Shown here: in pieces, positions 1 through 37,500 of the stretch
Layout of the letters: each line of letters starts with the position of its first letter
Position numbering within the stretch: position 1 is the stretch's first letter
NCBI GenBank assembly: GCA_028820455.1
Contig: JAPPJC010000057.1
Coordinates: 43,608-105,859, forward strand
Source: Acidimicrobiaceae bacterium
GTDB lineage: Bacteria > Actinomycetota > Acidimicrobiia > Acidimicrobiales > Aldehydirespiratoraceae
Reading direction: 5' to 3'
Length of the DNA: 62,252 nt
Program-made: the position numbers and the translations under genes
Notes under the pieces: generated by a model
Database searches by the model: none
What the model was told of the DNA's origin: nothing
The model's input: the letters and a program-made list of their open reading frames with translations, nothing else

Positions 1-144
1 TCCCGGCGTGGTGAATCGAACTGCTGGGGTGGGCTTGCGTGTGCTGTGGGTGGTATGACATGTGAGCCTCCATCCCGGCGTGGTGAATCGAACTGCTGGG
101 GTGGGCTTGCGTGTGCTGTGGGTGGTACGTCCGATGGGGAGTTT
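1..144. repeat. 72-nt in-frame tandem duplication inside the DprA-like C-terminal tail
   Basis: nt 1-55 recur at 73-127 (tcccggcgtggtgaatcgaactgctggggtgggcttgcgtgtgctgtgggtggta). On the minus strand this encodes PPTAHASPPQQFDSPRR twice. Confidence 0.9.
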
Positions 145-3353: not shown

Positions 3354-3420
3354 ACAGAACCCACGGGGTAGCTCACCACCAGCTGCTCGAATGCACGTCA
3401 CAGCTGTGATAGGCAACAGG
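3354..3420. repeat. recQ-upstream leader/promoter-region segment, copy A of a dispersed repeat (copy B at 27242-27317)
   Basis: cagaacccacggggtagctcaccaccagctgctcgaatgcacgtcacag...ctgtgat aligns with cagaatccacgaggtagctcatcacgatctgcttgaatacacggcacag...ctgtgat at 27242. Copy B carries a 12-nt insertion. Confidence 0.7.
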
Positions 3421-3462
3421 CGATGGGTGTCGGTGCTGGAGGCCTGCCACAGGTACTCCAGC

Positions 3463-17683: not shown

Positions 17684-17783
17684 CGATACGGTTACGTCGC
17701 AGCAGCCGCACAACCGATAGTTTGTGATTCTGGCATAGTACCAACTCACGATTAGGGCATTCCTGCTAGGGCATTCCTGCGTG
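17684..17783 (+). repeat. Copy A (degenerate) of a ~95-nt direct repeat (copy B at 54154-54244)
   Basis: gatacggttacgtcgcagcagccgcacaaccgatagtttgtgattctggcatagtaccaactcacgat..ggcattcctgcgtg compared with ctatacggctacgtcgcagcggccgtacggtcgacagtttgtgattctggcatagtgccaactcacgat..ggcattcctgcgtg. Confidence 0.85.
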
Positions 17784-20381: not shown

Positions 20382-21164
20382 TCAGGCTGGTTCAAGGGTG
20401 CCTTGTTCGATCAATAGTTCCAGGTGGCGGCTCAGTCTTGCCGGTAGAGGGCCTGCTTTGATGAGGACACCGAGTTCGATGTTGTCGTTAATACCGGCAC
20501 TGGTGAGGTTGGCACTGGTGATCAGAGCGGATGACTGGTCAGCGATCACGCATTTGGCGTGGAGACGAGCTGTTGTGGCGAAGAATGCTTCACGAATTTC
20601 CTGTGGCCACCGGTAGAACCTAGCGGTGTCTTGGATGGGGTTGAACGGGTGGTCTGGTCCGAAGACCAGCCGACCTCCAGGATCGTCGGGGGTTTCGAGG
20701 ATCAGTATCACCTCAACTCCCTTCGCTATTGCGTCGACGAGGCTGGCCGTGAGTTCGCCAACGTCGTGGGTGGTGAAGGACACCAGGATAAGACTTTGCG
20801 TTGCGTTAGTGACGAGCGTGGTGAGTACTGACCTTGTTGAGCGAAGTCCAGCGATTTGTGTTGAAGGGCCTGTCCATACAAGGCTGGTGTCGTGTTCGGT
20901 TCGCATGGTTGCAGCAGTTGCGGCTGCAGTGCTTGCAGCGGCAGCCACGGTGGCTCCAGTCACCTCCGGGGTGTGAGCCCATGCCTGTGCGATCTTCTGG
21001 GCATGTTCACGATAGTTGACGGCGGGGTTGGCGTCGATCAACACAGACTGTGAGGCGGGTGACCATCCAGGTACATCCGCGATTGCACCGACTCCTGTGG
21101 TGAGCAGTTCTTCGGGAACGTAGATCGCAGCTTCTACAATAGCGTCTGTGAGTAAATCGTTCAT
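20382..21164 (-). CDS. drmC: DISARM DrmC, phospholipase D (HKD) family nuclease
   Basis: The HKD motif is RLHAKCVIADQSSALITSANLTSAGINDNIELG. ATGA overlap with the drmB stop at 21161-21164. Confidence 0.85.
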   Translation of the reverse strand: MNDLLTDAIVEAAIYVPEELLTTGVGAIADVPGWSPASQSVLIDANPAVNYREHAQKIAQAWAHTPEVTGATVAAAASTAAATAATMRTEHDTSLVWTGPSTQIAGLRSTRSVLTTLVTNATQSLILVSFTTHDVGELTASLVDAIAKGVEVILILETPDDPGGRLVFGPDHPFNPIQDTARFYRWPQEIREAFFATTARLHAKCVIADQSSALITSANLTSAGINDNIELGVLIKAGPLPARLSRHLELLIEQGTLEPA

Positions 21165-23029
21165 GTGAAGTAAGCGTTGTCCGTGTGACCGAGAATGGGG
21201 ACAGCTGCTGCGCGATCAAGGTAACGGTTGCTGGCTTCGCAGGATGTTTCGGATGCGAACAAGCAAGCATGACAAGCAGCGTGATGGAGCGTGTCGCCTA
21301 CGTCACCGGCGTTGTGGTTTGCGCACATGGGATCGGTGGAGCAGAGTTCAGCACGGTTCACTGCGTCCTGGAGCACCGCTGCAAGGCGGGCCGGTTCGGC
21401 TAGTGCTACCAGGCCACCGAGGGTGCCTTCAGAGTCGGGGGATCCTGTGTAAAGCAGCACTCCTGCCATCGGTGGACCTTCCGCATCGCCGGGCTCGCGG
21501 CAGTAAAGACGTTCACGAATCGATGCTGCGGAATAGCCACACTCCAACGCAACCTGATGTATCAGCAGGTGTGAAACAGTGTGCAGCAGCACAAAACGGG
21601 CTGGTGGCATTCCTGTCTCTGAGTCCAGTTTGCGGCGTGCTCGCCATTTCTGGGTGGCTTGCCGCAAATTCAGGTAGCGTCCACTGTCCTGGTACTGTTT
21701 TTCCCACTGCTCGACTCTGCTCTCGGACAGCCTGATGAGAATCCCTTCGCCCCGCACTTCCGCGGCTGGTAGCCATGACTGCGGGGTATCCCAGATTTGC
21801 GCTATACGGTCGTGGTCGGCTTCGTTGGGACCGTCTATGCGGGTGAATCCACACAGTGCTTGCACCTCCCGTAGGCGATCGACGGCGACAGGATGGTCGA
21901 GCGTTTGTTTGAATCCGTCGGGAATGTCCAGGGCTCGGACTTTGAAATCATCGGATTTCGGCGGCACAGCCTTGGTGAAAGCCGTCCACTCCGGGCCTCG
22001 CAGGTCGCTGGTGCCAATTATGTCTGTTTCACTGTTGCTGCGATCACGCTGATCCTCGATAGCCGTCCACACGTCGCCGTTGTTATATCGCATAAGCCAT
22101 CGCAGCGGTTTTTCACCGGCACCTCTTTTGAGCCGTTTGATGATGAACTTCAGTTCGCTGCGATCTTCAATGTCTTCAAGGAGGTCCCAGTGTTCTGAGA
22201 CTTTCTGGTCGATCTCGCCGGTAACTGTGGGAATCGTAAGAGCGGAACGATGGACAGCAAACCAAGCGTTGGACGCTCCCAGAAGCAAGGCACGAGTCGG
22301 TTCGCCGCAGCCGCCATCAAAACGCTGCAAATGAGGGTGGCGGCCTCTACATTGAGGGAGATGTTCGAGCGCATCGGGACCGAACGCTTCATGTACAAGC
22401 CGGTCACAGCCGCAGGTTTTGCACACAACACGCACATCGGTGGCCCGACTAGCTTTGCCCACATCCTTTAGCTCCAAGATCGAAGCAGCGGAGCATGGAG
22501 TGTCACGATGAACGTACTGTTCCCACGGGAAGTCGTCGAGATGACCCGCAGGACACGCAATCAAGAACCGGGCAGGCACTGCACTGGGGCGACGACCGTG
22601 ACATTTGTCATGGAAGTAGCGAGCTTTGTCGGGCCGGTAAGGGTTGATGTCAAGCTTGAAACGTCGACGGTCTATAGGCGCGAGCAAGTTGCATCGTGTG
22701 CAGCGAAGCCACCGCGGAAACGGATGCACTGGCACACCGATGCGCGCCCACTCATCGAAAGGACTTGCTGTCTCCTCCTGCCAAGGTGGAGTGCGGAACT
22801 CCGCTACACGGTGGCAACCCGGCACTGAGCGAACGGCACCGAGGAGTCGGGATTCGAGGAGTCGTTCTGTGTGTTCGATGCGCCACTCGTCGGTGCCCGC
22901 AAGCACAACCGACAGCTGTGGCAAGTCCATGACCGCTCCCGGACCGTAGGTGTGGATCATCTGGGATGGACGGATTCCACCGACACGCCGCTGTTTGGGT
23001 GTTCTCTTCTTAGATCCAGCCGGGCTCAT
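21161..23029 (-). CDS. drmB: DISARM DrmB, DUF1998 (MrfA-type Zn-binding) protein
   Basis: C-terminal LHHAACHACLFASETSCEASNRYLDRAA is the DUF1998 hallmark. Position is between the helicase and the PLD gene. Confidence 0.85.
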   Translation of the reverse strand: MSPAGSKKRTPKQRRVGGIRPSQMIHTYGPGAVMDLPQLSVVLAGTDEWRIEHTERLLESRLLGAVRSVPGCHRVAEFRTPPWQEETASPFDEWARIGVPVHPFPRWLRCTRCNLLAPIDRRRFKLDINPYRPDKARYFHDKCHGRRPSAVPARFLIACPAGHLDDFPWEQYVHRDTPCSAASILELKDVGKASRATDVRVVCKTCGCDRLVHEAFGPDALEHLPQCRGRHPHLQRFDGGCGEPTRALLLGASNAWFAVHRSALTIPTVTGEIDQKVSEHWDLLEDIEDRSELKFIIKRLKRGAGEKPLRWLMRYNNGDVWTAIEDQRDRSNSETDIIGTSDLRGPEWTAFTKAVPPKSDDFKVRALDIPDGFKQTLDHPVAVDRLREVQALCGFTRIDGPNEADHDRIAQIWDTPQSWLPAAEVRGEGILIRLSESRVEQWEKQYQDSGRYLNLRQATQKWRARRKLDSETGMPPARFVLLHTVSHLLIHQVALECGYSAASIRERLYCREPGDAEGPPMAGVLLYTGSPDSEGTLGGLVALAEPARLAAVLQDAVNRAELCSTDPMCANHNAGDVGDTLHHAACHACLFASETSCEASNRYLDRAAAVPILGHTDNAYFT

Positions 23030-23096: not shown

Positions 23097-26000
23097 TCAT
23101 CGGCGACTCCGTTTGACAACCTGGTCCTCGGCTTCGGCAACTTCGATGGCTTCGTCTATATCCTCATCGTCAACCGTGACCGGACGGGTGTCGGCTGCAA
23201 CCGGGCCACGACGACCGGTTGAACTTGGGGTGTCGTCGGGTTGATTTATGATAATCTCGGGATGGGTGTTGGATTCATAGGTTTGGTCTTCTTCAAAGAT
23301 TTGTAGGTTTACCTGTACTTCGGTATCGCGAAGTGAGTTCGGGCAAGTCCACATGTTCCAGTCGCCAGCTTCGGGTTTGTCGAGCAGTGCTACATCCTCT
23401 GCGGTGCGCTCAGCGTAAGACAACTCTGGGCGTAGCACAGCTTCACGATCCCAAGCATCAAGGCGTTTGTTGGCCATGTCGGTTACTAGCTCAGCAGTGA
23501 AGATATTGCCGGTGACGCCTTGCGCGCGCTCGGCAATCGCTTGGACGTGCGCGGCTATTCGTTGGTCTGGGCGGTTAATCTTACGCGCCGACCAGTTCGG
23601 ATTCCAGTTTTGATCGCTGTGGCGCACCGCCGACACGAGAATCCCGGTGAGGCCCTTGTCGAGGGCTCGTTCTGAGAATGGTGTGACTGAGAGCGATTCA
23701 ACATGGCGGTAGAAGGTAGCGTGATAGTGGCTGAAAGTCTCGTAGTGTGACAAGTCTCGGGGTCGTGCCCAGTTATACAGTGTGATCACCAGGCCCGGGC
23801 CTTTGGGATCGCGCCCAACCCTGGAAGTGGCCTGAATATATTCGGCGGTGGCTTTGGGCTGGCCGACTACAACCATTGAAGCGAGTCGTGACACGTCAAC
23901 ACCGACGGAGATCATGTTCGTAGCCAACAACAGGTCGATGGGGCGGTCATTGTTTTCAGCATTGGCGGGGTCGTGTGTGACAAACAGCTGATGCAGGATT
24001 GATTTGATGTCATCTGCGGAGACACGTGATGTGAGTTCCTTGAGCTCGACGGTCGGGCGGTTGGCGAGACCACGGGTGAAGCGTGTACGGCGGAGTTTGG
24101 TGCGCAGCTCATCTTCGGCCATGCGGCGCATACCGGCGAGCTCGCGAACCGAGTTGAAATATCCGACGGTGGTCATCCACGGATCTGCAGCGGCGGCGTT
24201 GTCACCGAGTTCGTTCCATATGGCTTTGGCAGCGGCCATGACAGAGGAGAAAACCCGCAACTCCACCTGTTTGAGCCGTTCTCCGTGTGCACAGATTCCG
24301 AGGTAGAGTCGTCCGGGGGTTTGCGGGCTCGGCCGGACTTGTTCAGCGAAGAACGAACGCCGCACATCAAGCACTGGAGGCGGGAATATGCGCAGGTCAC
24401 GCCAAAACACCGACCAGGCCTGCTGACGGGCTCTTCGTGTCGTAGCGGTTGACGCAACCACTTTGGGCCGCACTTCACGCCCGTTGTAGTTCCAGGTGGC
24501 GAGCCGGTCGATTGCCGTTTCGTACAATCCCGCCATGGTGCCCAACGGTCCGGTCACGAGATGCATTTCGTCTTGGATGATCAGATCCGGCGGACGAAGT
24601 CGTAGCGATGGCAGTGTTCTCGCTGGAGGATGGCTGGCCTGAGATTTGTGGGCGTCACGTTCCATCCAATGCGTCTGGTGGGAGCGGTCGAGGTCGGGAT
24701 TTCGGTATCCGTGTCTTTCACAGTACGATTCGACCCGTCCGAATAGTGTGGAGGTAGCTCCGTTCCAGGGCAGCTGAGCGAACTTGTCGATAGTGCCGAT
24801 AATGAACGACGGAAGCAGCCGGTATATCTCCTCGTCGACGGTGACGACGGGGATTCCCTCGCCTGCTGTGTGTACTTCGGTGAACACGCATTCCTTGGCA
24901 TTTCCGCAGAAAATCAGGAAACGTGCCAGCACGGAGTCGTACCGGCAGTCGTTTCCTATGTCGATCTCGTTTCCGCACCACGGACAGTCGGTGAGCTGAA
25001 CGGGGGTCGCCTGCCCCCGGCTGTAACCACCCATGCGGGCTTCCTCAGCGAATCGTTGAGCGTCACGGGACATGTTCGGTGACACCGACCCGCCGACCCA
25101 CATCCCAAGCCGGAACGGGGTGCCACTATAACGGGTATCGGTTTTGGCCCGATGCTGACGGAGTCGTTCCGCAGCGCAGATCAATGTCGCAGCCCGCTGA
25201 AATTGTTGTGCTGTCAGCAAGCGCAGGGTGTAACGCATGAGCACAGCCACACCGTCGCGCCCGTCCACGCTGTCCTGTTTGTCCACACCGTCGCGCCCGT
25301 CCACGCTGTCCTGTTTGCCTCCTATTACACCTTGCAGTCGTCGGGTGGCCAGAGTGTAAGCGACAAGTCCGAGGTAGGCTTCGGTTTTGCCGCCACCGGT
25401 TGGGAAGAACAGCAAATCAGCCAGTGCTCCTTGGTGACTGCGTTCGGGGTGAGCGGGATCGGTGAGCGATGGAATGCACAGCAATATGAAGGCCAGCTGG
25501 AATGGTCGCCATGACCGGTTTTCCGATATGTCAGCGTTCCGTACGGCCTGCTGTAAGCTCAGGCTGGAATCCAGGTGCCGGGCACCGATGGCGACTGTGT
25601 GAACACGCTGTTGCCACATCGCCTGGTTGGCAAACTGGAACGCGTTGAGAGCGTCGGGATCTGAGCACACAAGTTCGATTCCCTCCATGACAGCGTCAGC
25701 TATACGACGTGCTTGAGCAATCGTGTCATGGGCGACTCGCTCGTGTCCTTCAAGGCGGGCAGCAGCGTCACCGATGCGCGCTAGTTCCTCGTCGAGCCAC
25801 ACCCGGTAACCTTCAGCTAGTGGCAGCAAAGCCGCACGCAATTGTTCTGGTTCCAGCTCCGATAGTGTTTTCATGTCGGTGACCAGTCCTGTCAGCTGTG
25901 GCGAAGTTTCAGGTTTTGGAGCATCGGTCCGCCACACTTCGTATTGGGGAACGACCGCGGTGCAGCACCGCACAGCACGACGGGGATCACCATCTGCTTT

Positions 26001-26813
26001 TTCAACCTTGGTGCCGACCCCGTGTCCCACAGCGAATTCCACTACATCTCGGTACTGTAAATCGAGCTGGGTGCTCTCGGTTTCGCGGTTCGAATTGCGT
26101 CTTGTATTGGACGTGTACATGTTACGACCTAAAAACACAGCAGCATTTCCGTCTGCCAACAGATCGAGCCTTACCTGGAACATCCACCGGCTGTCCTTGT
26201 TGCGTCGACCTGGTTCCTGCCTGTTCGACAAGAACACCGTCACCAGCCACGGCCCATCGTCGGAGCTGGTCACCCGTCCTCGCAACTCGATCCCCTCCCC
26301 GTTGACCGACAGCGGTCCGAATTCGCCGTTTTTCAAAGGAATCACAATGTCAACTTGTTGAGGCTTGCGAACCCACACCGCTGCACGGGAACCGTCATTC
26401 TGCGTATGGAACTCCCGCGAATACTGTCCCCAACTGCAGCGGGCGATCAAACGCTTGGCCGTGGCGTCAGCTACAACGGACAACCCCATTGACGACTGGG
26501 CCAGTACCAACTTCGTGGTACAGCCATCCCGATCATCTCCAGCGTTGGCCCCGTCATCTGGTTCTGGGCCTATACTGTCGTCACGTTCGGGATCGCTGGC
26601 GACAGTCCCTTCAGGAGCGAGCATTCCCACCAGGTAACGGTCCCGCACCCGCCCTGGTGAAGACCACTTACCGTCAGGGAACTGATAGCCGATTATGACC
26701 TCGTTCTCACCGTCGAGCGGACCCAGCAAATCTGCTGTGATACGGGACACAAGGTCCGCACGCAAATCCCAAGGACTCGGAACCGAAGTAGAAGTATCAG
26801 CGGATTTCGTCAT
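23097..26813 (-). CDS. drmA: DISARM DrmA, large SF2 helicase
   Basis: Walker A FFPTGGGKTEAYLG, DExH box IIQDEMHLVTGP, helicase-C LLATNMISVGVDVSRL and QATSRVGR. 1238 aa. Confidence 0.9.
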   Translation of the reverse strand: MTKSADTSTSVPSPWDLRADLVSRITADLLGPLDGENEVIIGYQFPDGKWSSPGRVRDRYLVGMLAPEGTVASDPERDDSIGPEPDDGANAGDDRDGCTTKLVLAQSSMGLSVVADATAKRLIARCSWGQYSREFHTQNDGSRAAVWVRKPQQVDIVIPLKNGEFGPLSVNGEGIELRGRVTSSDDGPWLVTVFLSNRQEPGRRNKDSRWMFQVRLDLLADGNAAVFLGRNMYTSNTRRNSNRETESTQLDLQYRDVVEFAVGHGVGTKVEKADGDPRRAVRCCTAVVPQYEVWRTDAPKPETSPQLTGLVTDMKTLSELEPEQLRAALLPLAEGYRVWLDEELARIGDAAARLEGHERVAHDTIAQARRIADAVMEGIELVCSDPDALNAFQFANQAMWQQRVHTVAIGARHLDSSLSLQQAVRNADISENRSWRPFQLAFILLCIPSLTDPAHPERSHQGALADLLFFPTGGGKTEAYLGLVAYTLATRRLQGVIGGKQDSVDGRDGVDKQDSVDGRDGVAVLMRYTLRLLTAQQFQRAATLICAAERLRQHRAKTDTRYSGTPFRLGMWVGGSVSPNMSRDAQRFAEEARMGGYSRGQATPVQLTDCPWCGNEIDIGNDCRYDSVLARFLIFCGNAKECVFTEVHTAGEGIPVVTVDEEIYRLLPSFIIGTIDKFAQLPWNGATSTLFGRVESYCERHGYRNPDLDRSHQTHWMERDAHKSQASHPPARTLPSLRLRPPDLIIQDEMHLVTGPLGTMAGLYETAIDRLATWNYNGREVRPKVVASTATTRRARQQAWSVFWRDLRIFPPPVLDVRRSFFAEQVRPSPQTPGRLYLGICAHGERLKQVELRVFSSVMAAAKAIWNELGDNAAAADPWMTTVGYFNSVRELAGMRRMAEDELRTKLRRTRFTRGLANRPTVELKELTSRVSADDIKSILHQLFVTHDPANAENNDRPIDLLLATNMISVGVDVSRLASMVVVGQPKATAEYIQATSRVGRDPKGPGLVITLYNWARPRDLSHYETFSHYHATFYRHVESLSVTPFSERALDKGLTGILVSAVRHSDQNWNPNWSARKINRPDQRIAAHVQAIAERAQGVTGNIFTAELVTDMANKRLDAWDREAVLRPELSYAERTAEDVALLDKPEAGDWNMWTCPNSLRDTEVQVNLQIFEEDQTYESNTHPEIIINQPDDTPSSTGRRGPVAADTRPVTVDDEDIDEAIEVAEAEDQVVKRSRR
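25247..25318. repeat. Perfect 36-nt in-frame tandem duplication inside drmA
   Basis: ccacaccgtcgcgcccgtccacgctgtcctgtttg occurs twice, head to tail. It encodes KQDSVDGRDGVD / KQDSVDGRDGVA. Confidence 0.9.
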
Positions 26814-27115
26814 CTGTTTTGAATATCAAAAAGGGACTGCTGGGATGGACTTGTGTGTGTCGTGGGTGGTATGTCCGATGGGGAGTTTGTGCTGTCAAGA
26901 AGTGATTCTATGTCGTCTGGACTCGACACGGGTGTTGCGCCTCGCTGCTGGAGGGGGCTTGTTGTCGGGGCCTTCCCCTTCGTCTCGCCACACTGCTATT
27001 CGTCCGTAGTCGTTCTTGAGTGTCTCGAAGGCTCCAGAGCAGGTGACTCCACTGCCGTGGTCGCTGGCACAACCGCCACGGTGAGTTCGGGCTGTGCGTA
27101 GATGAGCTTGACCAA
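26810..27115 (-). pseudogene. Degraded 3' remnant of a second DprA-like gene whose stop overlaps the drmA ATG
   Basis: 26833-27115 aligns with 90-365 (roughly 85% by eye) with +1 and +2 indels. The remnant reads ...SDIPPTTHTSPSQQSLFDIQNR then TGA within aacagATGAcg, where ATG is the drmA start. Confidence 0.8.
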
Positions 27116-27241
27116 CTTAGAATCCCAACCATCAGGCTATATCACCAGCGTAACTCCACCGCCACACTCCGCGAATACTAGTAGAACAACAATGCACTAA
27201 CAACCTTTAAACAACCCCATCAACCTAAATATGTAATTACC

Positions 27242-27317
27242 CAGAATCCACGAGGTAGCTCATCACGATCTGCTTGAATACACGGCACAGGTATAATCGC
27301 AACTGTGATGTACAGGG
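27242..27317. repeat. Copy B of the recQ-upstream segment (copy A at 3354-3420)
   Basis: See the alignment under copy A. It lies about 130 nt beyond the DprA-tail remnant, so the recQ and dprA 5' body is deleted here. Confidence 0.7.
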
Positions 27318-27383: not shown

Positions 27384-28646
27384 TTAATGCTCAAGCCATG
27401 GCTCAAAAGCGTGAGCCCAGCGTATTAAATGGTCGCTAGGAATGCCCAGACCTTCTGGGAGACGAGGTAGCACCCGTTGAACTCTTTCGGCAGTAGCGAG
27501 CATAATGGAACACAAGTCAGAGAGTGATCTTTTCTCGGCTTGACGAAGTTCCCAGGCTCGCGCAAGGGCAAAATGGCGTTTAAGTTCGTGATAATTTAAA
27601 TCGCTTGGAAGTTTCTTGTCATAGTTACAAACATTACATCCGCAAGCAAATGTGTTGTCTCGCTCGATAAGTGCTGTAGCAGTAGCGGTGGGTAAATAGG
27701 TATGAAGTTTTCGTACGTAGTAGCGCGCAGGTGCAGCACCTGTTGAGTCTAATGTCGGCCAATCTCTTGACTCACTGTATCCCAGTCCGTTATTAAAACC
27801 ATCCAACCCTAACTTTCCCAATAGAATACTAAAACAACCCCCATATAGATTCATGAGATCGTATTCTGTTTTGAGACCACAAACCACACGTATTAGCTGC
27901 TGAAGTTTACCAACTTCCACCTTGTGTTCTCTAAAACTGGGAATCCAAAAGAAAACTCTCGATGATAAACTACTAGGAACTTGCTCAATAGCCTCCTGAA
28001 GTGATGATATATCCATCATGGATACAATCGGTGATATCTGTTCAGGGTCATCAACTTTTTGGGCAGCATCCCAGATTCTGCGCATGACATCCCACCATCT
28101 GTCCGAAAAATCTCGCACAGCAAAATATGGGCACAAGATATATTTTGGCTCACGCTTGTTACTTCTATCAGGCGACGACTGTTCGATAGTGCCAGGTGCC
28201 TCGTTATGCGCTTTTCTTAATAGCTGATCATAACGCTCGAGTTTCTCTGTGATACTATCAGCTCGACTCCCGTATTGCCGTTGAAAATCAATAAAGGATG
28301 CGACGACCTCGTTGCAAACATCTACAGAGTAAAACTCAGCAGGAAAATAAGCACCTTGGTTATCTTCCGAATCAGGAGAGCTGATAAGACGAGAATCAAC
28401 TGTTGTTCCCATGAAAGATGCGAGAGTATAATGCGATTTTCTAGGGTGTTGCAAATGTTCCTGAAATAGCGGCGTTCTTGGTTCAATAATATAATCTAAT
28501 TGTGAAGACAGCACAAAAGCAGCTGTGGCATCCTCATAGTAGGATGCAATCGTCGAAGGAACAGTCAAAATCTCAAAACAGTCTCTTACATCGGGATCAC
28601 GAAAACTTTTTTGATCAGCGTTCCCGTATGCAAGGCAATGCAACAT
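27384..28646 (-). CDS. TGT/DpdA-like (queuine/archaeosine transglycosylase fold) protein; inferred
   Basis: 420 aa. NLYGGCFSILLGKLGLDGFNNGLGYSESRD resembles the TGT LMGVG...GIDMFDCV strand region. About 50 aa later, FACGCNVCNYDKKLPSDLNYHELKRHF matches the TGT zinc motif CxCxxC followed by Y..H. TAATG 1-nt overlap with the upstream gene. Confidence 0.5.
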   Translation of the reverse strand: MLHCLAYGNADQKSFRDPDVRDCFEILTVPSTIASYYEDATAAFVLSSQLDYIIEPRTPLFQEHLQHPRKSHYTLASFMGTTVDSRLISSPDSEDNQGAYFPAEFYSVDVCNEVVASFIDFQRQYGSRADSITEKLERYDQLLRKAHNEAPGTIEQSSPDRSNKREPKYILCPYFAVRDFSDRWWDVMRRIWDAAQKVDDPEQISPIVSMMDISSLQEAIEQVPSSLSSRVFFWIPSFREHKVEVGKLQQLIRVVCGLKTEYDLMNLYGGCFSILLGKLGLDGFNNGLGYSESRDWPTLDSTGAAPARYYVRKLHTYLPTATATALIERDNTFACGCNVCNYDKKLPSDLNYHELKRHFALARAWELRQAEKRSLSDLCSIMLATAERVQRVLPRLPEGLGIPSDHLIRWAHAFEPWLEH

Positions 28647-29068
28647 TATATATTCCTTCCTGCTGATGCATAGTGCACATCGGACTTGATGAGACGTTGA
28701 CGGATGCGCTGTGTTGGTTTAGCACGTCTAGCTTCTTTTATGATTCGAGTTGAACCGTTTGCAACTGCAATCACCCCAATGCCAAAATTAGCCGCCTCCG
28801 ACGATCTTGCTTCGATAACTCTTTTTTCAGGTACTGCTATATACACAAAATCCACACAATATCGATGCAAAAAAGCTTGCACAATGAGGTGTCGAGAATG
28901 ATAAAGTTTTGCTTCTACAGCTATCAGCTCAGTCGGTGTTGTTACTAGAATATCCATGCTAGCTTGACCATGGCATCGCACCTCTATTCTACTAGTAGCC
29001 AGATCGCCCCACAGCTCACACACATGGGCCCGAAATTCAGTCACAAGATCAGCTTCCGATTTATACAT
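28646..29068 (-). CDS. PD-(D/E)xK (restriction endonuclease / Hjc-like fold) protein
   Basis: MDILVTTPTELIAVEAKL is a D-x13-E-x-K core preceded by a conserved E (SEADLVTEF). The preferred start ATG 29068 (MYKSEADL) overlaps the upstream stop by 8 nt. Confidence 0.55.
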   Translation of the reverse strand: MYKSEADLVTEFRAHVCELWGDLATSRIEVRCHGQASMDILVTTPTELIAVEAKLYHSRHLIVQAFLHRYCVDFVYIAVPEKRVIEARSSEAANFGIGVIAVANGSTRIIKEARRAKPTQRIRQRLIKSDVHYASAGRNI

Positions 29069-29651
29069 CGCTGGATTCCGATTCGATATGAAGTCTTGGC
29101 TTAATTTTTTTATTCTGAATGATCCAATAGACACTTAAAGCTACATATACGACTATTGACTCAAAAAGTAGCAATAATATGATCCAATCAAGGCAACTAT
29201 AACCTGCTGATTTATCGAGCAGCCGTATTGCCAAATTACCTACTGCAGCTACGCACAATATGATTGCAATAGGCATAAGTGCTAGTCTTATATGCTGAAC
29301 ACGATACATTCCTCGTCTGTATGTTTCGCATGCTGATAATTCATAGCAGCATTCTCTAATATCTTTGAATAATCCTGGATCATTAAGTATCAATTCCAAT
29401 TGTGCATGTTTACGTTTCTCATCATTGGTTTCTAAATGAATTTTCCAAATCGGTTGCAAACTCTCATGAATGAGTTTTATAGCCCGCCGACTAATATTAC
29501 CTTGGAACTTGATCAATTTTCTTTCGTGTTCAGAATGAGTTGCGCGAGACTCACGTCGATCCCTGCGAAACAGCAATATAGCAGATACGATGGATGTTAT
29601 TGCACTAACTGGAATTGCGATATAGTTTAAAAAATGCCAGAAATTGCCCAT
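29061..29651 (-). CDS. Membrane protein (N-terminal TM helix plus 2-3 C-terminal TM helices)
   Basis: FLNYIAIPVSAITSIVSAILLF, ALMPIAIILCVAAVGNLAI and DWIILLLLFESIVVYVALSVYWII are hydrophobic spans. Confidence 0.55.
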   Translation of the reverse strand: MGNFWHFLNYIAIPVSAITSIVSAILLFRRDRRESRATHSEHERKLIKFQGNISRRAIKLIHESLQPIWKIHLETNDEKRKHAQLELILNDPGLFKDIRECCYELSACETYRRGMYRVQHIRLALMPIAIILCVAAVGNLAIRLLDKSAGYSCLDWIILLLLFESIVVYVALSVYWIIQNKKIKPRLHIESESSDV

Positions 29652-29668
29652 AGAAATAAACTGACTAT

Positions 29669-30211
29669 TCAGAATTGTGTGCCCATAATTTTGTCGCGAA
29701 TCACAGAATTCTTAGCATAATCAGGATAGCGTGTGTATACATGAAATATTAGATCCTGCAATGTTAGATCCCCATATTCATCTTTGAGGTTGCTGATCCT
29801 TTTTTGAAGTTTCGGATGCTGGTTGGCCAAATAGTTTGCAATAGTTCGCCCATTTTCAGTGAGAGAAAACTGGCGTTCATACGAAATTTCAGTCGTTGTG
29901 TCTGAATAAAGCAACTCTTCAGCACTGTCAAGTACTGAGTCTGTAAGTTTTCGAAATTCTTCTATTAGCCCAGCCTCTTTTAAAATATCTACAGCTTCGT
30001 ATACTTCCTTGGAGTACGGGCCATAATTATATGCTTCAAAATGAAATCGCTCCTCTATATGAGACTGGTAGTCACATTCTTGTTCGATAAGGAATAGAAA
30101 TTTCTCTAGCCGTGTGATTCCTTCTATTCGATTGCTTGCATGCTCCCAACGTGTTGGAGCTGCTAGTAGCAACAGGATTAGATCTGAGCCGATAAGTTTT
30201 TCAGCATCCAT
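29669..30211 (-). CDS. Winged-helix protein of the YwgA / Panacea (DUF4065, SocA-antitoxin-like) type
   Basis: ITRLEKFLFLIEQE...FHFEAYNYGPYSKEVYEAVDILKEAGLIEE has the L.K..fL ... yGPYS ... L...Gli pattern. GGAGAA precedes ATG 30211. Starts 38 nt after the drmMI stop. Confidence 0.5.
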   Translation of the reverse strand: MDAEKLIGSDLILLLLAAPTRWEHASNRIEGITRLEKFLFLIEQECDYQSHIEERFHFEAYNYGPYSKEVYEAVDILKEAGLIEEFRKLTDSVLDSAEELLYSDTTTEISYERQFSLTENGRTIANYLANQHPKLQKRISNLKDEYGDLTLQDLIFHVYTRYPDYAKNSVIRDKIMGTQF

Positions 30212-30249
30212 CAGGATTCTCCTAATATCTTCAATTTTAGCTATTTATC

Positions 30250-33200
30250 TTATTCTAGCAATGATTTCTGGTAAATTTTATGTATTGTTATATCTTTACG
30301 TATTCTAGAATATTTCTTCTTGACTGGTTTGTGTAGTTCTGCGTCTAATTCAGCAGCGTGGCGTTTCTTGTTCAACTCCAGCAGCCGGTCCAGTACTTCA
30401 TCGGCAGCTTGGGGAGAGAAAGTGAATCGGATGCCCTGGCCACGCACATGATGGAAGTCATGCTCAAGATCAAGGTCATACCACTTGTAGGCATCACGCA
30501 CTGCTAGATCGAGCTCAACATGCAGATCACGCAGTTTTCGGATTGTGCTATCGGAACGTACATCCTGGTTATGCACCAGGTTATAAACGTCGGTCAGTCC
30601 CAACTTGCGGTCGCGCATAAGCTGGGCACGGTGGTTATCGAGCACCTTCCCAACATTTTCAACAGTTGCATGATAGGAGGGTTGTGGGAAGGTTTCGAAC
30701 ACGTCTGAAGGTGTGTAACGAGTACGGGTTTCTAACGACGAAGCGTAGCGCACTGCCCAACGGTAGTGAAAGCCGGATGTGAGAATGCCGAAGTGGAAGT
30801 TATCGTCGTATGCGAACACAACCGTCGAGTCTGCAAACACTTGATCGTTCTTCACGAACACAGGTTTTAGAGTGTCGCCAACTCGCGATATCACTAGAAC
30901 CCGCTTCAAGGGCTTAATCGTTCGATACAGCTTTGGACGTTTCTCAGCATATACCCAATAAAGTTGTGGTAAAGGCTTCCGTTTTTTGAATTCTCCGTTT
31001 AGTTTACGTTCCTGTCGTACAGGCTTGACCTTTTCTTCTACGATTGCGAAGCACTCAGGATACTGCCGGGCTTTGTTTTCGGGCCAGTCGAAGAAATTGA
31101 TAACCCATCGGGGAGCAGTTAGCGTAGGTGACTGGTTGAGGTTCTGGCCACCAAGGTAGGGGAACAACACGTCGGCATTACGAGGATCCTTGTTAATAAG
31201 AGCCTGTGCTTTTTCGGGACTCATGGTAAAACCATCAGTTCCGAGAAGGTAAGAACCGATGAATGATTTATTGGCATTGGCGTTGAGACACTGTTTGCGC
31301 CATCCTGATCTTGACACTGGGTAGAGCATTTCGTCGATGCCTACTACAGATCGGCCGTCCAACATACGTTCTCCACGCCACGGATAGGCGGTGCCCCAGA
31401 CTTTGGCGATCTCCAACGATGTGTCGCCGGGCCATGTTGTTGATGAAACAGCGCGGTGGATCGTCCATCCAGTGTCGATGATCTGAGTGAGGCCTACCTC
31501 GCTGGTATCTCCCTGTGCAATGGTGTTGGTTGCGAGGAAACCGAAGGATTTAGCGACTTTGGTAGCGTTCAGAAAGAAGTATGCCACGAGGTCTGCTGAT
31601 CCTCTCTTGCGGTTGGCTATCCAAGTGATTAGGTGGTTGCGGTAGTCGGTTCCGATTGCTCCAGTGATCTTCTGGCCACCCATGAATGGTGGGTTGCCGA
31701 CTATTGCATCAAAACCTGGAGTGCTGGTACTACTGAAGACTTCAGGGAACGCGATCGGCCAATGCAAGGGTCTACGTGATGGTGCTCCATCAGGACATTC
31801 GGTGTTTAGACGTTTGTAGCCCCTCTGCTTCGCACGGTCCAGCGCGGCGGCTTGAGAAGGAGTATCGAGAGCCTCAATGAGTTGGACAATGATTTGTGCA
31901 TCGACATCCGGAAGGTTGGTGAGTGCCTTCTCGTAGTCTGTACCGCCAGCGGTGTTCAACGCGATGCCTATCAGGATATCGGCTATCGTGGCGAGAATCG
32001 ACAGGCGGTTCTCGCTACGCTGGTGGAGAACTTGTTTACGTTCGATGTCGGCGGGTCTTATGGTTTCGATGCTGTGCAGTTCACGCCTCATCTCCAGTGC
32101 TTCACGCACGAGACGTTCTACGGACTCGACTGCTACACCGCCAGCTGTGAAACCCGGGATCGGTGTCGGCCGTGCCCTACCGGCGGTCACATCGTAGTGA
32201 AGATAGCAGAGCTGATCGAGGTTGCTGATACCCAGGAGGCTGTCCCCGGACTTGATGGCGTGATCCAGGAACGTGAAGGGCCGGTCTTTGGCTACCGTGG
32301 TGATCCACATCGACAGTTTGGCCATTTCTGCGGCCATGGGGTTTATGTCCACTCCGTAGCAGCAGCGTTCGGCTATCAGCCGTCGGGCTTCGACCACGAT
32401 GTCCAGCCTGTTCGGGTCGTCTGCTGCGGTGGCGGTCTCCTGGGTGCGCTGGTTGTCTTCCGCTTGTCGTGCTTCGATGAGCCGGTCGGCGAGATAACGG
32501 CAGGCGGCTACGAGGATGGCACCAGAACCCACAGTGGGGTCGCAGACTTTCAAAGCGAGAATGTCGTCCGGTTTGCGGATGCGCCACTGGTTGGTGTCGG
32601 GTGTGTCCTGCGGGCCGGGTGAGTAGCACAACGGAGCGAGGGTGTGCTTGACTACCTCCTCAGCGAGTTCTCTGGTGGTGTAGGCGGTGCCACTGTCGCG
32701 TCGGGAAGTGGTTTCGGTTACATACACAGTGTCTTTTAGGAACACCAGCGGCCGGTCACGTAAATCCAGCCTCAACAGGTTGGCGAACGGTTCGATCCGA
32801 GCAGCCATCGTCTGGTCGCCTTGGCAGGCTTGGATCAGGGTTGCTCTGCGGTGACGGTCGAGGGGCTCAGCGAGGAGCTTCCCGACTTGATTCTTGGTCC
32901 CCACCCTCCGGCCAGCTTTCGCAGCTTCTTTGTTGCTGAGCCAGGCAACGAGGGCTTTCGTGCCGTCCATGCGTTTGGCTTCGAGTTCTGGTAGGGCGAT
33001 CTTGGGTTCCTCGCCGGGCTTTCTACCACGTAAACCGACCACGACGTGCTCAGCGGTGACAGCGTCATGGTCGAGAAGACGTTCGTATATGTGGCCGATC
33101 TGCTCCACGTCGACGTTCCGGTACGACAAGCGTCGGGTGTCGGTTGTGCCACGACTGTCACGGAATCGCAGCACCAGCAGCGAGTCGAGGATGGCTAAAA

Positions 33201-34485
33201 CGTCGAGGTCGGTCACGGCTATGGGCGTGCTAGTAGTGGTGTGCCAGGTGCTACCGGCAGCGCGGCCTTCCAGGAACGGGAACCGGTCGGGATCGAAGAG
33301 GCTGCCACCGTAGGCCGGCACCGACAAATCGTGGTGGTGGACTCCGCTGTGCAGAGCCCTGCTGGTGGCCAGCAGACGGTGCCATGCCGTTGTGCGTGTT
33401 TCGAGGGCTTCGGGGTTCTGGTAGCGTTCCTTCTCCAGGGTTTCCCGCAGCGTGCGGACGGAGTACAGGTCCTGGTAGTGGCGATTGTCGATGGGCAGCA
33501 GATCGTTCTCCTCGGCGATGAGTAGGAACACGACCCGCATCATCACGGTGACAGCCGCTTCGTAAACCTCGTTCGGGGTGACACCGTCCAGCAGGGTGCC
33601 GTCACGGTCCCGGTTGGCCCTCGATATGGCGTTCACCAGAAGCTCGACGGCTTGTCGTACTTGCATACCGAGCTGGTCGGTAACCTCGGCCTGGGAACTA
33701 GCGGATTCCTTGAGGAGCGTTTCGGGTGTGTTCTCCTGGGATGCACCTGTAAAACGCCACGAGCGCAGCATCGAACGGAACGAGTCGAGCAGCACGGACT
33801 CGGTAGCGAATTCCGAAGCCCGCCAGGTGCCCCAACCCGTGGCACCCTGCTCGGGTGCGTGAACTAGAGTCAAATGGTCCCCGTCGGTGACCAGTGCTAA
33901 TGGAACACGGTAGTGGCGACATGACAGCGCAGCACGCTGCACCCACGTCGCTGGCCATGTGTCATCGGGCGGTCGAGTCCGCGGATCAGTTCCGACTGGC
34001 AGGGAGAAAATCAGCACCCGTGGACTGTTCGTCTGATCTCCGCCGGTGCCGTAATCAGCGGTGCCGTGAGTTGATGTTGGTTCCGTGAGCAGATCAACAG
34101 CAACTCTTGTGGTTGGCTGATATACGCCTGTGGGTTTGACTGTGATCTCGTGTCGTGTGACTCCTTGAGCGAAGCCAGAAGGCAAGTCAGTGTTGCTCAG
34201 ATAGTCGTCACCCCATCCGAGCACGTCTTGTAGGAGCCAGTCGATGTAGTCGCTGCGGTCATCGGTGAGCCGTGCCGATCCGGATACGCCGTCACCGTAC
34301 CAGCGGGCCTTGTGCTCGGCCCGCAACTCCGGCTTTGGTTTGTCGAGACCGTTGGGAAACGCGCGTTTGAGCACAGGAAGTGAAAACCAAGGCGTCTCGG
34401 CATCAGTGAGGTTGAGCCAATCCTCATGCTGTTCAACGACACGCCGCCGCACAGCCACTACAGTCTCCCTTCCCCTCGCCACCAA
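30250..34485 (-). CDS. drmMI: DISARM class 1 DrmMI, large N6-adenine DNA methyltransferase
   Basis: SAM motif I is VCDPTVGSGAILVAA. Catalytic motif IV is AIVGNPPFMGGQK. 1411 aa, directly downstream of the SNF2 gene. Confidence 0.85.
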   Translation of the reverse strand: MVARGRETVVAVRRRVVEQHEDWLNLTDAETPWFSLPVLKRAFPNGLDKPKPELRAEHKARWYGDGVSGSARLTDDRSDYIDWLLQDVLGWGDDYLSNTDLPSGFAQGVTRHEITVKPTGVYQPTTRVAVDLLTEPTSTHGTADYGTGGDQTNSPRVLIFSLPVGTDPRTRPPDDTWPATWVQRAALSCRHYRVPLALVTDGDHLTLVHAPEQGATGWGTWRASEFATESVLLDSFRSMLRSWRFTGASQENTPETLLKESASSQAEVTDQLGMQVRQAVELLVNAISRANRDRDGTLLDGVTPNEVYEAAVTVMMRVVFLLIAEENDLLPIDNRHYQDLYSVRTLRETLEKERYQNPEALETRTTAWHRLLATSRALHSGVHHHDLSVPAYGGSLFDPDRFPFLEGRAAGSTWHTTTSTPIAVTDLDVLAILDSLLVLRFRDSRGTTDTRRLSYRNVDVEQIGHIYERLLDHDAVTAEHVVVGLRGRKPGEEPKIALPELEAKRMDGTKALVAWLSNKEAAKAGRRVGTKNQVGKLLAEPLDRHRRATLIQACQGDQTMAARIEPFANLLRLDLRDRPLVFLKDTVYVTETTSRRDSGTAYTTRELAEEVVKHTLAPLCYSPGPQDTPDTNQWRIRKPDDILALKVCDPTVGSGAILVAACRYLADRLIEARQAEDNQRTQETATAADDPNRLDIVVEARRLIAERCCYGVDINPMAAEMAKLSMWITTVAKDRPFTFLDHAIKSGDSLLGISNLDQLCYLHYDVTAGRARPTPIPGFTAGGVAVESVERLVREALEMRRELHSIETIRPADIERKQVLHQRSENRLSILATIADILIGIALNTAGGTDYEKALTNLPDVDAQIIVQLIEALDTPSQAAALDRAKQRGYKRLNTECPDGAPSRRPLHWPIAFPEVFSSTSTPGFDAIVGNPPFMGGQKITGAIGTDYRNHLITWIANRKRGSADLVAYFFLNATKVAKSFGFLATNTIAQGDTSEVGLTQIIDTGWTIHRAVSSTTWPGDTSLEIAKVWGTAYPWRGERMLDGRSVVGIDEMLYPVSRSGWRKQCLNANANKSFIGSYLLGTDGFTMSPEKAQALINKDPRNADVLFPYLGGQNLNQSPTLTAPRWVINFFDWPENKARQYPECFAIVEEKVKPVRQERKLNGEFKKRKPLPQLYWVYAEKRPKLYRTIKPLKRVLVISRVGDTLKPVFVKNDQVFADSTVVFAYDDNFHFGILTSGFHYRWAVRYASSLETRTRYTPSDVFETFPQPSYHATVENVGKVLDNHRAQLMRDRKLGLTDVYNLVHNQDVRSDSTIRKLRDLHVELDLAVRDAYKWYDLDLEHDFHHVRGQGIRFTFSPQAADEVLDRLLELNKKRHAAELDAELHKPVKKKYSRIRKDITIHKIYQKSLLE

Positions 34486-34507: not shown

Positions 34508-37500
34508 TTAACATTCCTGTTGGGGAACGAGGAATTCCACAGCTACGGGGAACCAGTTGACGTCTCGGACTCTGTAGCGACTCTTGAGGATTTCGACTTC
34601 CTTCTCGATATCGCTGTCGATCTGTTCAACACGATCGCGCAGTGCTCGCACATCGGCATCGAATTGTTCGCGTTCATCGCTGTCGAATAGCCGCAACTGT
34701 TCAGAGTTCGATTCCTCCAGCTCGTCAAGACGATGCCAGATGCTCAACTGAAGGTCTTTCAATGTACCTCTCAAGCGTTTCTCTTCATTTTCCCGTTTTG
34801 CGTCAATCGCCCGGCCGCGCTGACTACGCACCTCTTCAGCTCGCACTTCTAGTGTCCTTTGCAGGGCTGGTTGCACGCGACCCCATTGATCCGTGTATCG
34901 GGCACACACGTGGTCCGGCACAGACTGCGAACAAGCAGACGTGACGGCTGCGCGGGTTTCGCCGACGTTGAGGCGTCTCTGACGGCCACCCACTCGAACA
35001 GCTGCCGGTTCTATCACCTCATCGAGAGTTGACCCATCAGAGCCGTTGACAACAACACGAGCATGTGCTACCACAACCGGCTCGTCTATGTCGGCATACC
35101 GCACAGCGACCCGGTTGATTTTTCTGTCAACAGCGGCACCCCAAACCTGTGCTCGTAGAGTTCTCAAACAGCGGGCAACCAGCGGATGTCCGACATGCAG
35201 GTAGGCGACATCCTGATGTCCAGTGGCGATTTGCGGATCAAAAGTGACCGGCAAACGGAAATCCTCAACCTCGTTCTGCAACCCTACGAGCGTTTCACCC
35301 CATGTGCCAGCCAGGTCGTCAATCTCGAACACCGGTACGCCGCCATCGGGTCGTTCAAGTGTCGAATATCGCAGTGGCGGTTGACCCTCTATCCGCAACG
35401 CCACTTCTACGGCCCGTTGCACGTTCTCGGGTTTCAGATCGAGTTCCTCGACACTGGTGTTGTACTGTTCACGGACCCGCTCAATGTCGGCAGAGAACTG
35501 AGCTTTGAGCTTTTGTAGATCGACCCTGGCTTGGTCTCGTCGTATTTCCATCAAATCGTCGATGTCGAGGCTGTGGTTCCCTTCGCGCAGCATACGGGCC
35601 TCGATCCGCTCAGCCAACACCGACGACACCGAGCCGAGATCGTCACGAATGTCGTCTATCTTCCTCGCTAGACGCAACAGGAACGAATGGTCATAACCGA
35701 GATGGTCATCGTCATCACCATCACCGTTGGTTGAAGCGAAATGGAATATGTCAACTGTCTCGGATTTCTGACCGTGCCGGTCGATCCGGCCGTTGCGCTG
35801 CTCCATCCGGTTCGGGTTGAACGGAACCTCCATGTGCACCAGCCGGTGACACGCCCGGTGCAAGTCAATGCCTTCAGAGGCCGCGTCGGTGGCTAGTAAC
35901 ACACGCACTTTCGTCTTACGGGGGTTGTAGTTGAACTCCCTGATGATCCGTTCACGCTCATCGGTGTCAAGACTTCCGTGGAACACCTCAACCCGTCCTC
36001 TCATCGAAGGCCAACCATGGGGCTTTGCTGCCAGCATTTCTTCGAGGTAGTTGAGCGTGGCCCGGTACTCCGTGAACACAATGATCCGTTCATCGTTCCA
36101 TTCGCCGTCTGGGAAGCAAGTCTCACCGATCCAATCCAAAAGCCGTTTCGTCTTGGCATCAGCTCGGCGCCAACGTTCCTCGATCAAGGCACTCATCCGA
36201 TCGAGGATCCACGTAGCCTGGTCGGCATCCACTGTTCCTGTGTCGCCCGTCGTGTTCGCTGCACTCACTGTTCTTGCACGCATTCTTGCCAGCACCTCTA
36301 GTTCTGCATCAGCACCAAAACTGGCGAGTGCGCCCGCAGCCAGGGCTAGAGCTTCCTGCTCTTGGACGGACACAGGGACGGTGTCATCTGCTTCGTTTTC
36401 CAAAGCAGCTTCGGCTTGTTGTAACGCACGCTTAGTGGTACGGCGGTGAGCTGCGACGTTGAGAGTATGAATATGGTGTGCGAGAGTGTATTTGAACGCA
36501 GCCGGTGATGACAAGAGACGCTTCTTCAACAGCAGTACGATGAACCTGGATGCTGCACGCTCGGTTGGTGTGCTCGCCGCGCTCATACGCAGAGCCGCGT
36601 AGCGGTCCAACAGTTTGAACAGTTCTCGATCCTCGGGTGTGAAATCTACCTCGATAGCGAAGATTCTCCGTTTCGGGAAACGCTTTTCACCATCGGGCAG
36701 CATCGTTCGTAGATGCGACTTGAGACGTCGCACCATCACAGCGTCACGTTCCCCTTTGCTCGGAGGTACGCCTTTGGTGAACCGATTCTGGTCGAGCATT
36801 TCGAGCAGTGCTTGGAACGATTCATGGTAGCCGTTGTGCGGTGTCGCTGTCAGAAACAGTCTATGCTCGAAGTGTGGTGTAAGACGCCGCATTACTTTCG
36901 TGCGCAACGAATCTCGAGCGTAACGGCCTACCGCTGATGGAGCGATCCGATGGGCTTCATCCACGATAAGCAAGTCAAAAGCTCGTGGGAAAATATTGGG
37001 ATCCGGTGGAAGGAACTCATCGAACCAGCGCATCTGAGCCTCGAACTTGATCCATTCCATTGATACGACGAGCCGCGGATGGGAACGGAACGGGTTGACA
37101 CCCACCCCACGTTCACGTCTGAGCCGACGGACATGTTCAGTGTCGATAATCTCAAAAGCCAGGCCGAACTGTTCACGCATCTCTCGCTGCCATTTCCGGC
37201 AAAGACTCGGAGGACAGACCACCAAGATCTTCTGCGCCTGGTTACGCAGCACAAGCTCCTGTGCTATCAGGCCAGCCTCAACGGTCTTGCCCAAGCCGAC
37301 ATCATCAGCGATCAGCAAGCTAACACGGGGCATCCGCAACGCTTTCACCAGCGGTAGAAGCTGGTAGTCTTCAATGTCGATGCCCGACCTGAACGGAGAC
37401 TGGAACGCTTTCGGATTTGTTGAGGCGACGGCACCCCACCGGACAGCGTCGAGAAACCCGGCAAAGACCTCCGCTTCATCCAAACCCTCTTCAGGGTCGG

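Follow-up and report, generated by a model that had tools for sequence, protein, structure and literature searches.

Class 1 DISARM systems consist of drmD and drmMI followed by drmA, drmB and drmC, as in the system of Serratia sp. SCBI (bioRxiv 10.1101/2021.12.28.474362). DISARM is also, together with BREX, type I restriction–modification and Hma systems, one of the hosts in which defence genes of the same orientation have been found embedded (Payne et al., bioRxiv 10.1101/2024.01.29.577857). PsyrTA, which is the RqlH/RqlI pair, is related to ShosTA, in which a phosphoribosyltransferase (PRTase) toxin is paired with a DprA-like antitoxin that binds single-stranded DNA and RecA (PMC11961720, PMC12961424). 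PsyrTA is not mentioned in the main text of Payne et al. (bioRxiv 10.1101/2024.01.29.577857), and we found no paper in the literature linking it with DISARM. Here, we analysed a stretch of 62,252 nucleotides (nt) from an Acidimicrobiaceae bacterium (contig JAPPJC010000057.1, positions 43,608 to 105,859; hereafter the window), which carries a class 1 DISARM operon with a relic of a psyrTA module immediately before its drmA, and an intact psyrTA pair at the left edge. We read the relic as the dead remnant of a PsyrTA (RqlHI-type) module that was once embedded in the DISARM operon and was copied out, after which the original was gutted; we give this reading a probability of about 0.8. All of the genes relevant to it are on the minus strand (Table 1).

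The relic is made up of two pieces separated by a filler. The sequence-only reading, made from the letters of this DNA before any search, had described the larger piece as a degraded copy (26833-27115, about 85% identity, +1 and +2 indels) of the 3′ end of the DprA-like gene. In a blastn comparison, window positions 26836-27110 match the 3′ end of the intact psyrA at 92-363 (241/275 identical, 88%, E = 1e-89), with three gapped columns, two of them from an insertion (+2) near 27068-27069 and one (+1) in a run of G near 26953. The smaller piece, described as a copy at 27242-27317 of the segment upstream of the recQ-like gene, has a 49-nt core (27242-27290 versus 3355-3403, 84%, E = 2e-8 by blastn), which a local alignment extends to 27242-27310 versus 3355-3425 (55/71; score 72, with a maximum of 35 among 300 shuffles). 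A repeat search recovers the pairs of the larger piece as families D9, D10 and D16. The alignment check that the same reading had proposed against a low-complexity explanation came out in favour of homology, the matching sequence being non-repetitive and coding. Both pieces keep the order and orientation that they have in the intact locus, and the 131 nt of filler (27111-27241) stand in for 2991 nt of that locus (364-3354), in agreement with the loss of about 3 kb estimated previously. Neither the window nor 62 related loci gave a significant blastn match to the filler, which has only a weak, possibly degenerate, alignment with the intact 5′ leader.

Translated in three frames, the relic reads LIYAQPELTVAV, then, after a shift, ASDHGSGVTCSGAFETLKNDYGRIAVWRDEGEGPDNKP and, after a second shift, LQQRGATPVSSPDDIESLLDSTNSPSDIPPTTHTSPSQQSLFDIQNR up to the stop. 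It holds only codons 259-380 of psyrA, with two frameshifts and one in-frame stop, and has no complete frame for the DprA Rossmann core; it is a pseudogene fragment of psyrA. Its last frame ends with ...SQQSLFDIQNR-TGA within aacagATGAcg, where the ATG is the start of drmA at 26813, just as had been read by eye. An ATGA stop/start overlap, the putative sign of a translationally coupled pair, is thus present at 26810-26813 and also in the intact copy. A TANNNT box that is conserved in the intact copy and in its relatives lies just 3′ of the retained upstream fragment and is not recognisably kept in the relic; promoter and terminator scans of the relic and of the psyrT upstream region returned no site. 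Promoter capture, in which the retained fragment would drive drmABC, is unsupported, since the conserved box is outside the retained piece.

Both PADLOC models are covered over almost their whole length by the intact pair, PsyrT with 924 bits (9.3e-279, model positions 5-686 of 689) and PsyrA with 276 bits (1.3e-82). In PsyrT the Pfam families DEAD, Helicase_C and RecQ_Zn_bind are above the cut-off, and Pribosyltran, with 19.7 bits, is below its cut-off of 26.3. PsyrA matches PF02481 with 108 bits and is 380 amino acids long when read from the full scaffold. With a RecQ–PRTase toxin and a DprA-like (DNA_processg_A / SLOG) antitoxin directly downstream, the pair is predicted to be a PsyrTA toxin–antitoxin defence module. 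As in its relatives, the toxin precedes the antitoxin and the two genes overlap by the 4 nt ATGA at 1133-1136, the coupling to which the sequence-only reading had drawn attention. That reading had left the label at PsyrTA/ShosTA type. ShosTA indeed shares the DprA-like antitoxin and the PRTase-type toxin domain, and ShosA is the second-best PADLOC match for PsyrA (85 bits); however, ShosT is devoid of the RecQ helicase part. The score of the PsyrA model is far above that of ShosA, and the pair is therefore PsyrTA and not ShosTA. The intact copy differs from PsyrTA/RqlHI as described by a 24-codon insertion in the tail of psyrA, by what follows psyrA and by the PRTase match below the Pfam cut-off. 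The relic corresponds to the 3′ third of psyrA and differs by the absence of psyrT, the loss of 258 psyrA codons and the frameshifts.

From base 20 onward the window is identical to the ENA metagenome scaffold ROBB21-1_SAMN13943214_METAG-scaffold_317 (105 kb), in which we read the left flank (L001). There, the intact psyrA ends with ...PPQQSLFDIQNR-TGA (...QQSLFDIQNR) in the same aacagATGAcg as the relic, and is followed by ATGACGAAATCCGCTGATACTTCTACTTaGGTTCtGAcTCC (L001 13275-13315), which corresponds to the first 41 nt of drmA and runs into a stop at codon 10. Window positions 26873-26773 and L001 13215-13315 are identical at 90 of 101 positions, the homology passing through the ATGA and 41 nt into drmA. 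It is contiguous from psyrA codon 259 through the ATGA to nt 41 of drmA, the sole interruption being the 72-nt (24-codon) insertion in the intact copy; the apparent break in homology at window 91/92 is due to this insertion and to an assembly loop at the window edge. Behind the stub come 315 non-coding nt, a convergent gene of 577 amino acids and then core genes, including those of the Pup-proteasome. No other DISARM remnant was found beside the intact copy, on either side, at the DNA or the protein level. The drmA-like gene that had been suspected beyond the left edge thus exists as a 41-nt stub, and there is no gene.

The DrmA N-terminus (MTKSADTSTSVPSPWDLRADLV; MT.x.D.ST.VPSPWDLRADLV) is conserved in relatives without psyrTA (MTE[LP]SDASTAVPSPWDLRADLV), and the stub is therefore derived from drmA. 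On the psyrA side, 113 of 119 PsyrA homologues end with Q-x-x-[LF]-F (mostly QQSLF) plus a few residues, usually six. In a stand-alone relative (L072) psyrA ends with ...RPLFELQNK and a stop, the DNA being CCCCTTTTCGAGCTGCAAAACAAGTGAC, homologous to GTCCCTTTTCGATATCCAGAACAGATGAC here, and the tail pattern ...LF(D/E)(I/L)QN(R/K)-stop, with TGAC in the DNA, is native to this stand-alone gene; by these comparisons the PsyrA tail is native to psyrA. The closest DISARM relatives are arranged as drmD-drmMI-drmA-drmB-drmC, and their drmMI stop overlaps the drmA start in ATGA or GTGA, followed by C. Since drmMI/drmA and psyrA both carry the shared (A/G)TGAC, this is where the cassette was joined to drmA. 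Reciprocal scars of one psyrA–drmA junction stand at both loci, and an arrangement psyrT-psyrA-drmA-drmB-drmC therefore existed in this lineage. To this extent the operon recQ-PRT/dprA-like/drmA/drmB/drmC proposed from the sequence stands, thanks to the drmA stub; as the ancestral layout of DISARM it does not, the relatives having drmMI-drmA.

We then looked for the same adjacency in related genomes, taking one genome per GTDB species, which gave 62 drmA loci with 10-kb flanks, and adding the three closest loci (65 in all). PsyrT, PsyrA and the four open reading frames (ORFs) that lie between drmMI and the relic gave no tblastn match (E <= 1e-5) in the 62 loci or in the 3 further ones, and psyrTA was within 8-10 kb of drmA in 0 of the 65. 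The three closest DrmA proteins (78-81% identity, from a collection of 5.8 billion proteins) are encoded in class 1 loci, canonical or degraded, that lack psyrTA. In the other direction, the loci of the nearest PsyrA proteins (69% identity; L066-L068) and L072 each hold a two-gene psyrT-psyrA module that stands alone, with unrelated genes after it, and drmA is next to psyrTA at 0 of these 4 loci. A PsyrA scan of JGI metagenome contigs returned two distant matches only (35-41% identity), and a further hit, P0001, is the truncated protein of the window itself. PsyrTA-like genes are thus not a recurrent component of class 1 DISARM next to drmA. The survey of relatives that the sequence-only reading had itself suggested never showed recQ- or dprA-like genes beside drmA, an outcome which, on that reading's own terms, tells against the functional link that it had drawn between a PsyrTA-type pair and the DISARM core. 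Among the close DrmA relatives, one has drmMI split by about 1.4 kb and drmC broken by an ISL3 transposase (L069, 6346-8004), and another has lost most of drmMI, drmD abutting drmA (L071, 3867-4937).

The history that we propose would begin with a psyrTA module embedded, on the same strand, in the variable drmMI–drmA slot of a class 1 DISARM operon. It would have been joined exactly at the (A/G)TGAC native to both partners, with psyrA, in place of drmMI, now ending in the TGA that overlaps the drmA ATG. Some 3.4 kb, beginning about 150 nt upstream of psyrT and reaching 41 nt into drmA, would then have been copied to the edge of the island, 26.7 kb away. The embedded original would subsequently have been gutted, 2991 nt being replaced by the 131-nt filler, with two frameshifts and then a decay biased from G:C to A:T. 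Reciprocal scars would be the outcome: a psyrA tail before a live drmA and a drmA stub behind a live psyrTA. We infer this order of events, and we likewise infer that the relic now serves only as the leader of drmA, in which a terminal frame that is still open may preserve translational coupling. The relocated segment is bounded neither by repeats nor by target duplications, a 36-nt repeat being present upstream of psyrT on that side only. The presence of psyrTA in DISARM is, in these terms, ordinary defence-island or embedded-cargo turnover, seen after the cargo has left. Several points weigh against this history. The two copies differ by 12%, and the second copy could have come from a related strain and not from a duplication within the genome. 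The filler is not explained by any match. The intact psyrTA–drmA arrangement was found in no genome, the nearest PsyrA being at 69% and the nearest DrmA at 79% identity, and the survey covered species representatives and a few metagenome contigs, which is not an exhaustive census. Finally, the terminal part of the relic does not have the look of neutral decay, and 'dead remnant' may not be the whole story.

To follow the decay, the 24 differences in the 70 alignable codons were polarised with L072, L066 and L067 as outgroups. In codons 1-50, which are out of frame in the relic, the relic lineage has accumulated 10 nonsynonymous and 3 synonymous changes and the intact lineage 1 and 1, respectively; in codons 51-70, which are in frame, the relic lineage has 0 and 3 and the intact lineage 0 and 2. 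The changes of the relic lineage in codons 1-50 destroy conserved Gly and Trp residues and their ratio is about neutral, so that the embedded copy seems to have been inactive for essentially all of the time since the split, which fits a copy-out of about 3.4 kb followed by a quick loss of the original. The 20 conserved codons in frame with the terminal TGA (LQQRGATPVSSPDDIESLLD) show six differences from the intact copy, all of them synonymous, and in QQSLFDIQNR the relic and the intact copy differ by three synonymous and no nonsynonymous changes. The contrast of 10:3 with 0:3 in the relic lineage (Fisher p = 0.036; Poisson P = 0.018 for 0 nonsynonymous changes with 4 expected) is one of small counts, with a partition picked after the data had been seen, and the linker between the conserved motifs of the relic has four nonsynonymous changes. 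Gene conversion as the reason for the conserved tail was ruled out, synonymous differences being as frequent there as elsewhere. The terminal ORF of the relic has a GAGG 10 nt upstream of its GTG at 26929. There is no GGAG-like motif within 20 nt of drmA here (CTTTTTGATATTCAAAACAG-ATG); in 8 of 9 relatives, by contrast, the drmMI tail contains GGAG or GGGAGA at 6-8 nt before the drmA start.

Other explanations can be weighed against these data. PsyrTA might serve the DISARM core as a functional accessory, transcribed with drmA and translationally coupled to it in a mechanistic partnership: psyrA and drmA are on the same strand with an ATGA overlap in both copies, and embedded systems may be co-regulated with their hosts (bioRxiv 10.1101/2024.01.29.577857). 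We regard such a composite system as very unlikely, as the adjacency is absent from all 65 related drmA loci and all four nearest psyrTA loci, the ATGA is, in canonical relatives, where drmMI is coupled to drmA, we found no paper that links the two systems and the partnership has dissolved in this genome with both systems still intact. Alternatively, the intact psyrTA and its stub could be all that is left of another DISARM+PsyrTA island, related to the first and gained by horizontal transfer or through a large duplication, which later lost drmA-C and drmD-MI, the resident island having lost its own psyrTA. The 12% divergence between the copies and the position of the stub at the island edge, beside the core Pup-proteasome genes, speak for this scenario; yet neither side of the intact copy holds another DISARM remnant in DNA or protein, the divergence is mostly on the relic lineage, as expected of one decaying copy, and more deletions are needed than for a 3.4-kb copy-out, which makes it distinctly improbable. 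An artefact due to chance, low complexity or a chimeric assembly is scarcely credible. The source is a metagenome scaffold, and the first 19 nt of the window, which conflict with the ENA scaffold, are an assembly-loop artefact of the 72-nt tandem repeat in the psyrA tail, the repeat core having twice the depth of its flanks. But chance does not give E = 1e-89 over non-repetitive coding sequence, a mis-join cannot yield 12% divergence with frameshifts, and the two assemblies concur from window base 20 on. Moreover, Logan contigs of the run support both junctions, relic/drmA and intact psyrA/stub, at about 8.5-11x each, the depths summing at the shared 33-mer (20x), and a Logan contig with a matching loose end confirms the drmA stub.

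A last possibility touches the relic itself, which might be partly alive: its last 39 codons (GTG 26929 to TGA 26810) would be a translated leader ORF that hands ribosomes to drmA at the ATGA, and its peptide with QQSLF may be under selection. Two frameshifts fall in the 150 nt upstream and none in the last 140 nt, and the 10:3 versus 0:3 contrast between the upstream codons and the in-frame conserved block, the purely synonymous differences in QQSLFDIQNR (3:0) and the want of a GGAG-like motif before drmA, present in 8 of 9 relatives, all agree with it. On the other hand, few changes are counted and the partition is a post hoc one, the linker has its four nonsynonymous changes, and translational coupling does not need amino-acid conservation; in addition, initiation without a Shine–Dalgarno sequence is common in Actinomycetota. 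We hold this possibility to be unlikely. The stronger version, according to which the relic was kept because drmA lost its own ribosome-binding site and relies on a 39-codon PsyrA-tail leader ORF ending on its ATG, with a tail peptide (QQSLF) that purifying selection may still maintain and that could function as a stand-alone micro-protein, seems quite doubtful. If the leader-ORF interpretation were true, a pseudogene fragment would have been exapted to keep a downstream defence gene translated.

Table 1. Features of the psyrTA and DISARM loci (window coordinates)
Feature	Positions	Strand	Evidence or remark
psyrT (RecQ-like helicase, C-terminal PRTase-like domain)	1133..3271	-	PADLOC PsyrT 924.5 bits; Pfam
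psyrA (DprA-like)	1..1136, continuing past the window edge	-	PADLOC PsyrA 276 bits; bases 1-19 artefactual
psyrTA upstream segment with counterpart in the relic	3355..3425	-	blastn and local alignment
drmC (PLD)	20382..21164	-	PADLOC 195 bits; Pfam PLDc_2
drmB (DUF1998/MZB)	21161..23029	-	PADLOC 243 bits; Pfam MZB
drmA, 1238 amino acids, intact	23097..26813	-	PADLOC DrmA 935 bits; residues 1-1238 align at 72-79% to relatives
First 41 nt of drmA	26773..26813	-	Also present as the dead stub after the intact psyrA, outside the left window edge
ATGA overlap of psyrA-remnant stop and drmA start	26810..26813	-	Sequence; in relatives, drmMI and drmA are joined by ATGA/GTGA
Terminal ORF of the relic, GTG start, 39 codons MSSPDDIESLLDSTNSPSDIPPTTHTSPSQQSLFDIQNR	26810..26929	-	TGA overlaps the drmA ATG
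psyrA 3′ remnant	26814..27110	-	Codons 259-380 minus the 24-codon insertion; DprA-like antitoxin
131-nt filler, about 40% GC	27111..27241	.	Replaces psyrT and the first 258 psyrA codons
psyrT-upstream fragment	27242..27310	-	Homologue of the intact segment at 3355-3425
Four low-GC cargo ORFs between drmMI and the relic	27384..30211	-	180, 196, 162 and 420 amino acids
drmMI (N6-adenine methylase, 1411 amino acids)	30250..34485	-	PADLOC DrmMI 1544 bits; C-terminus ...YQKSLLE-stop
drmD (SNF2 helicase)	34508..37753	-	PADLOC DrmD 1137 bits

The DISARM locus itself is a complete class 1 system: like the described systems, it has all five genes, intact, on one strand and in the canonical order. It differs from them by 3.4 kb of foreign material between drmMI and drmA, namely the four low-GC ORFs and the relic, and by the drmMI–drmA ATGA coupling, which appears to be replaced here by a coupling of the relic to drmA. 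The relic and the four ORFs, all on the minus strand between drmMI and drmA, are thus embedded cargo in the sense of Payne et al. (2024). The resemblance to the embedded systems described there (bioRxiv 10.1101/2024.01.29.577857) lies in same-orientation cargo nested between core genes, and extends to PDC-M19A, a candidate embedded family of that work which is matched by the SocA/Panacea-like 180-amino-acid ORF. The difference is that the psyrTA cargo is seen here after its loss, with a relocated copy and a reciprocal scar recording the event. The 196-amino-acid ORF has a hydrophobic N-terminus. The 62 related DISARM loci hold no homologue of any of the four cargo ORFs, whose guanine–cytosine (GC) content is 38-48%, compared with 55-62% for the DISARM genes. 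The low-GC block (27384-31000) comprises the four ORFs and also the last 1 kb or so of drmMI, a pattern that suggests recombination in which a cassette was exchanged and a crossover fell within drmMI.

In the relatives, too, this slot is often filled. The matches to drmMI and drmA are more than 0.5 kb apart in about 25 of the 51 loci that hold both, a few of these being alignment truncations, and in the loci examined the cargo is varied and on the same strand. It includes UvrD-like helicases, a DUF7380/DUF4209 protein, six tandem pairs of small ORFs (L026), a MORC-like HATPase, a Schlafen AlbA_2 protein with HATPase_c_4, DUF222-HNH and HTH-Peptidase_M78. Loci with varied cargo at the slot are L014, L015, L022, L023, L025, L026, L036, L042, L045, L047 and L054. 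The DrmMI C-termini of class 1 loci (among L002-L057) have the forms Q[GE]SLL plus four residues, QxxLL at the stop or LGGLFQ.., with YQKSLLE before the stop at 30250-30275 of the window. The bacterial beta-sliding-clamp binding motif is QL[SD]LF, which both the QQSLF of PsyrA, in the tail at 20-40 of the window, and these DrmMI tails resemble; the likeness of the tails raises the idea that the DISARM methylase might be clamp-tethered.

The locus offers a natural record of cargo turnover inside a multi-gene defence operon, with a precise insertion at a stop/start junction, a relocation that took along 41 nt of the neighbour and a gutted original. It also calls for caution in annotation: tight operon-like linkage of two defence systems, even with an ATGA overlap, is no evidence for a shared mechanism. 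Finally, class 1 DISARM has at the drmMI–drmA junction a slot whose cargo varies, in Acidimicrobiia as in other lineages, which should be useful for guilt-by-embedding searches.

The region as a whole is a defence island that also carries LmuB-like, SIR2/ThsA-like, Dsr1-like and GmrSD/HEC-05-like genes; Rfam and tRNA scans found no RNA gene across the whole window. The sole public run holding the window is a sponge metagenome, and the closest relatives of the island genes are found in Acidimicrobiia metagenome-assembled genomes, many of them sponge-derived; the host is most likely a member of Actinomycetota that is associated with sponges. Logan contigs at 513x match the conserved psyrA/DprA motif region over 35 nt (…RNKLIYAQ…, window 337-384), a near-identical stretch carried by a much more abundant organism of the same sponge sample. 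Short tandem duplications, exact or nearly so, occur at several places in the contig, and three of them have a 72-nt period (1-127, 3462-3569 and 53959-54102). The one at 3462-3569, upstream of psyrT, has a 36-nt core with the palindrome GTGTGACACAC, and drmA contains an in-frame 36-nt duplication at 25247-25317 (KQDSVDGRDGVD twice). A 94-nt repeat (82% identity) at 17662-17755 and 54132-54225, beside a transposase-like ORF fragment (17121-17618, minus strand), likely represents, together with this fragment, the remnants of insertion sequences, which could have mediated rearrangements in the island. A 50-nt element (CTAGGTGTGATGACCGTGGACGTTGTATCCGGGTTGAGGGGGTAGTGGGG) is present in three intergenic copies that are 78-86% identical (6842-6891, 11319-11368 and 38039-38088), one of them upstream of drmD; a shared regulatory site and a small repeat element are both conceivable.

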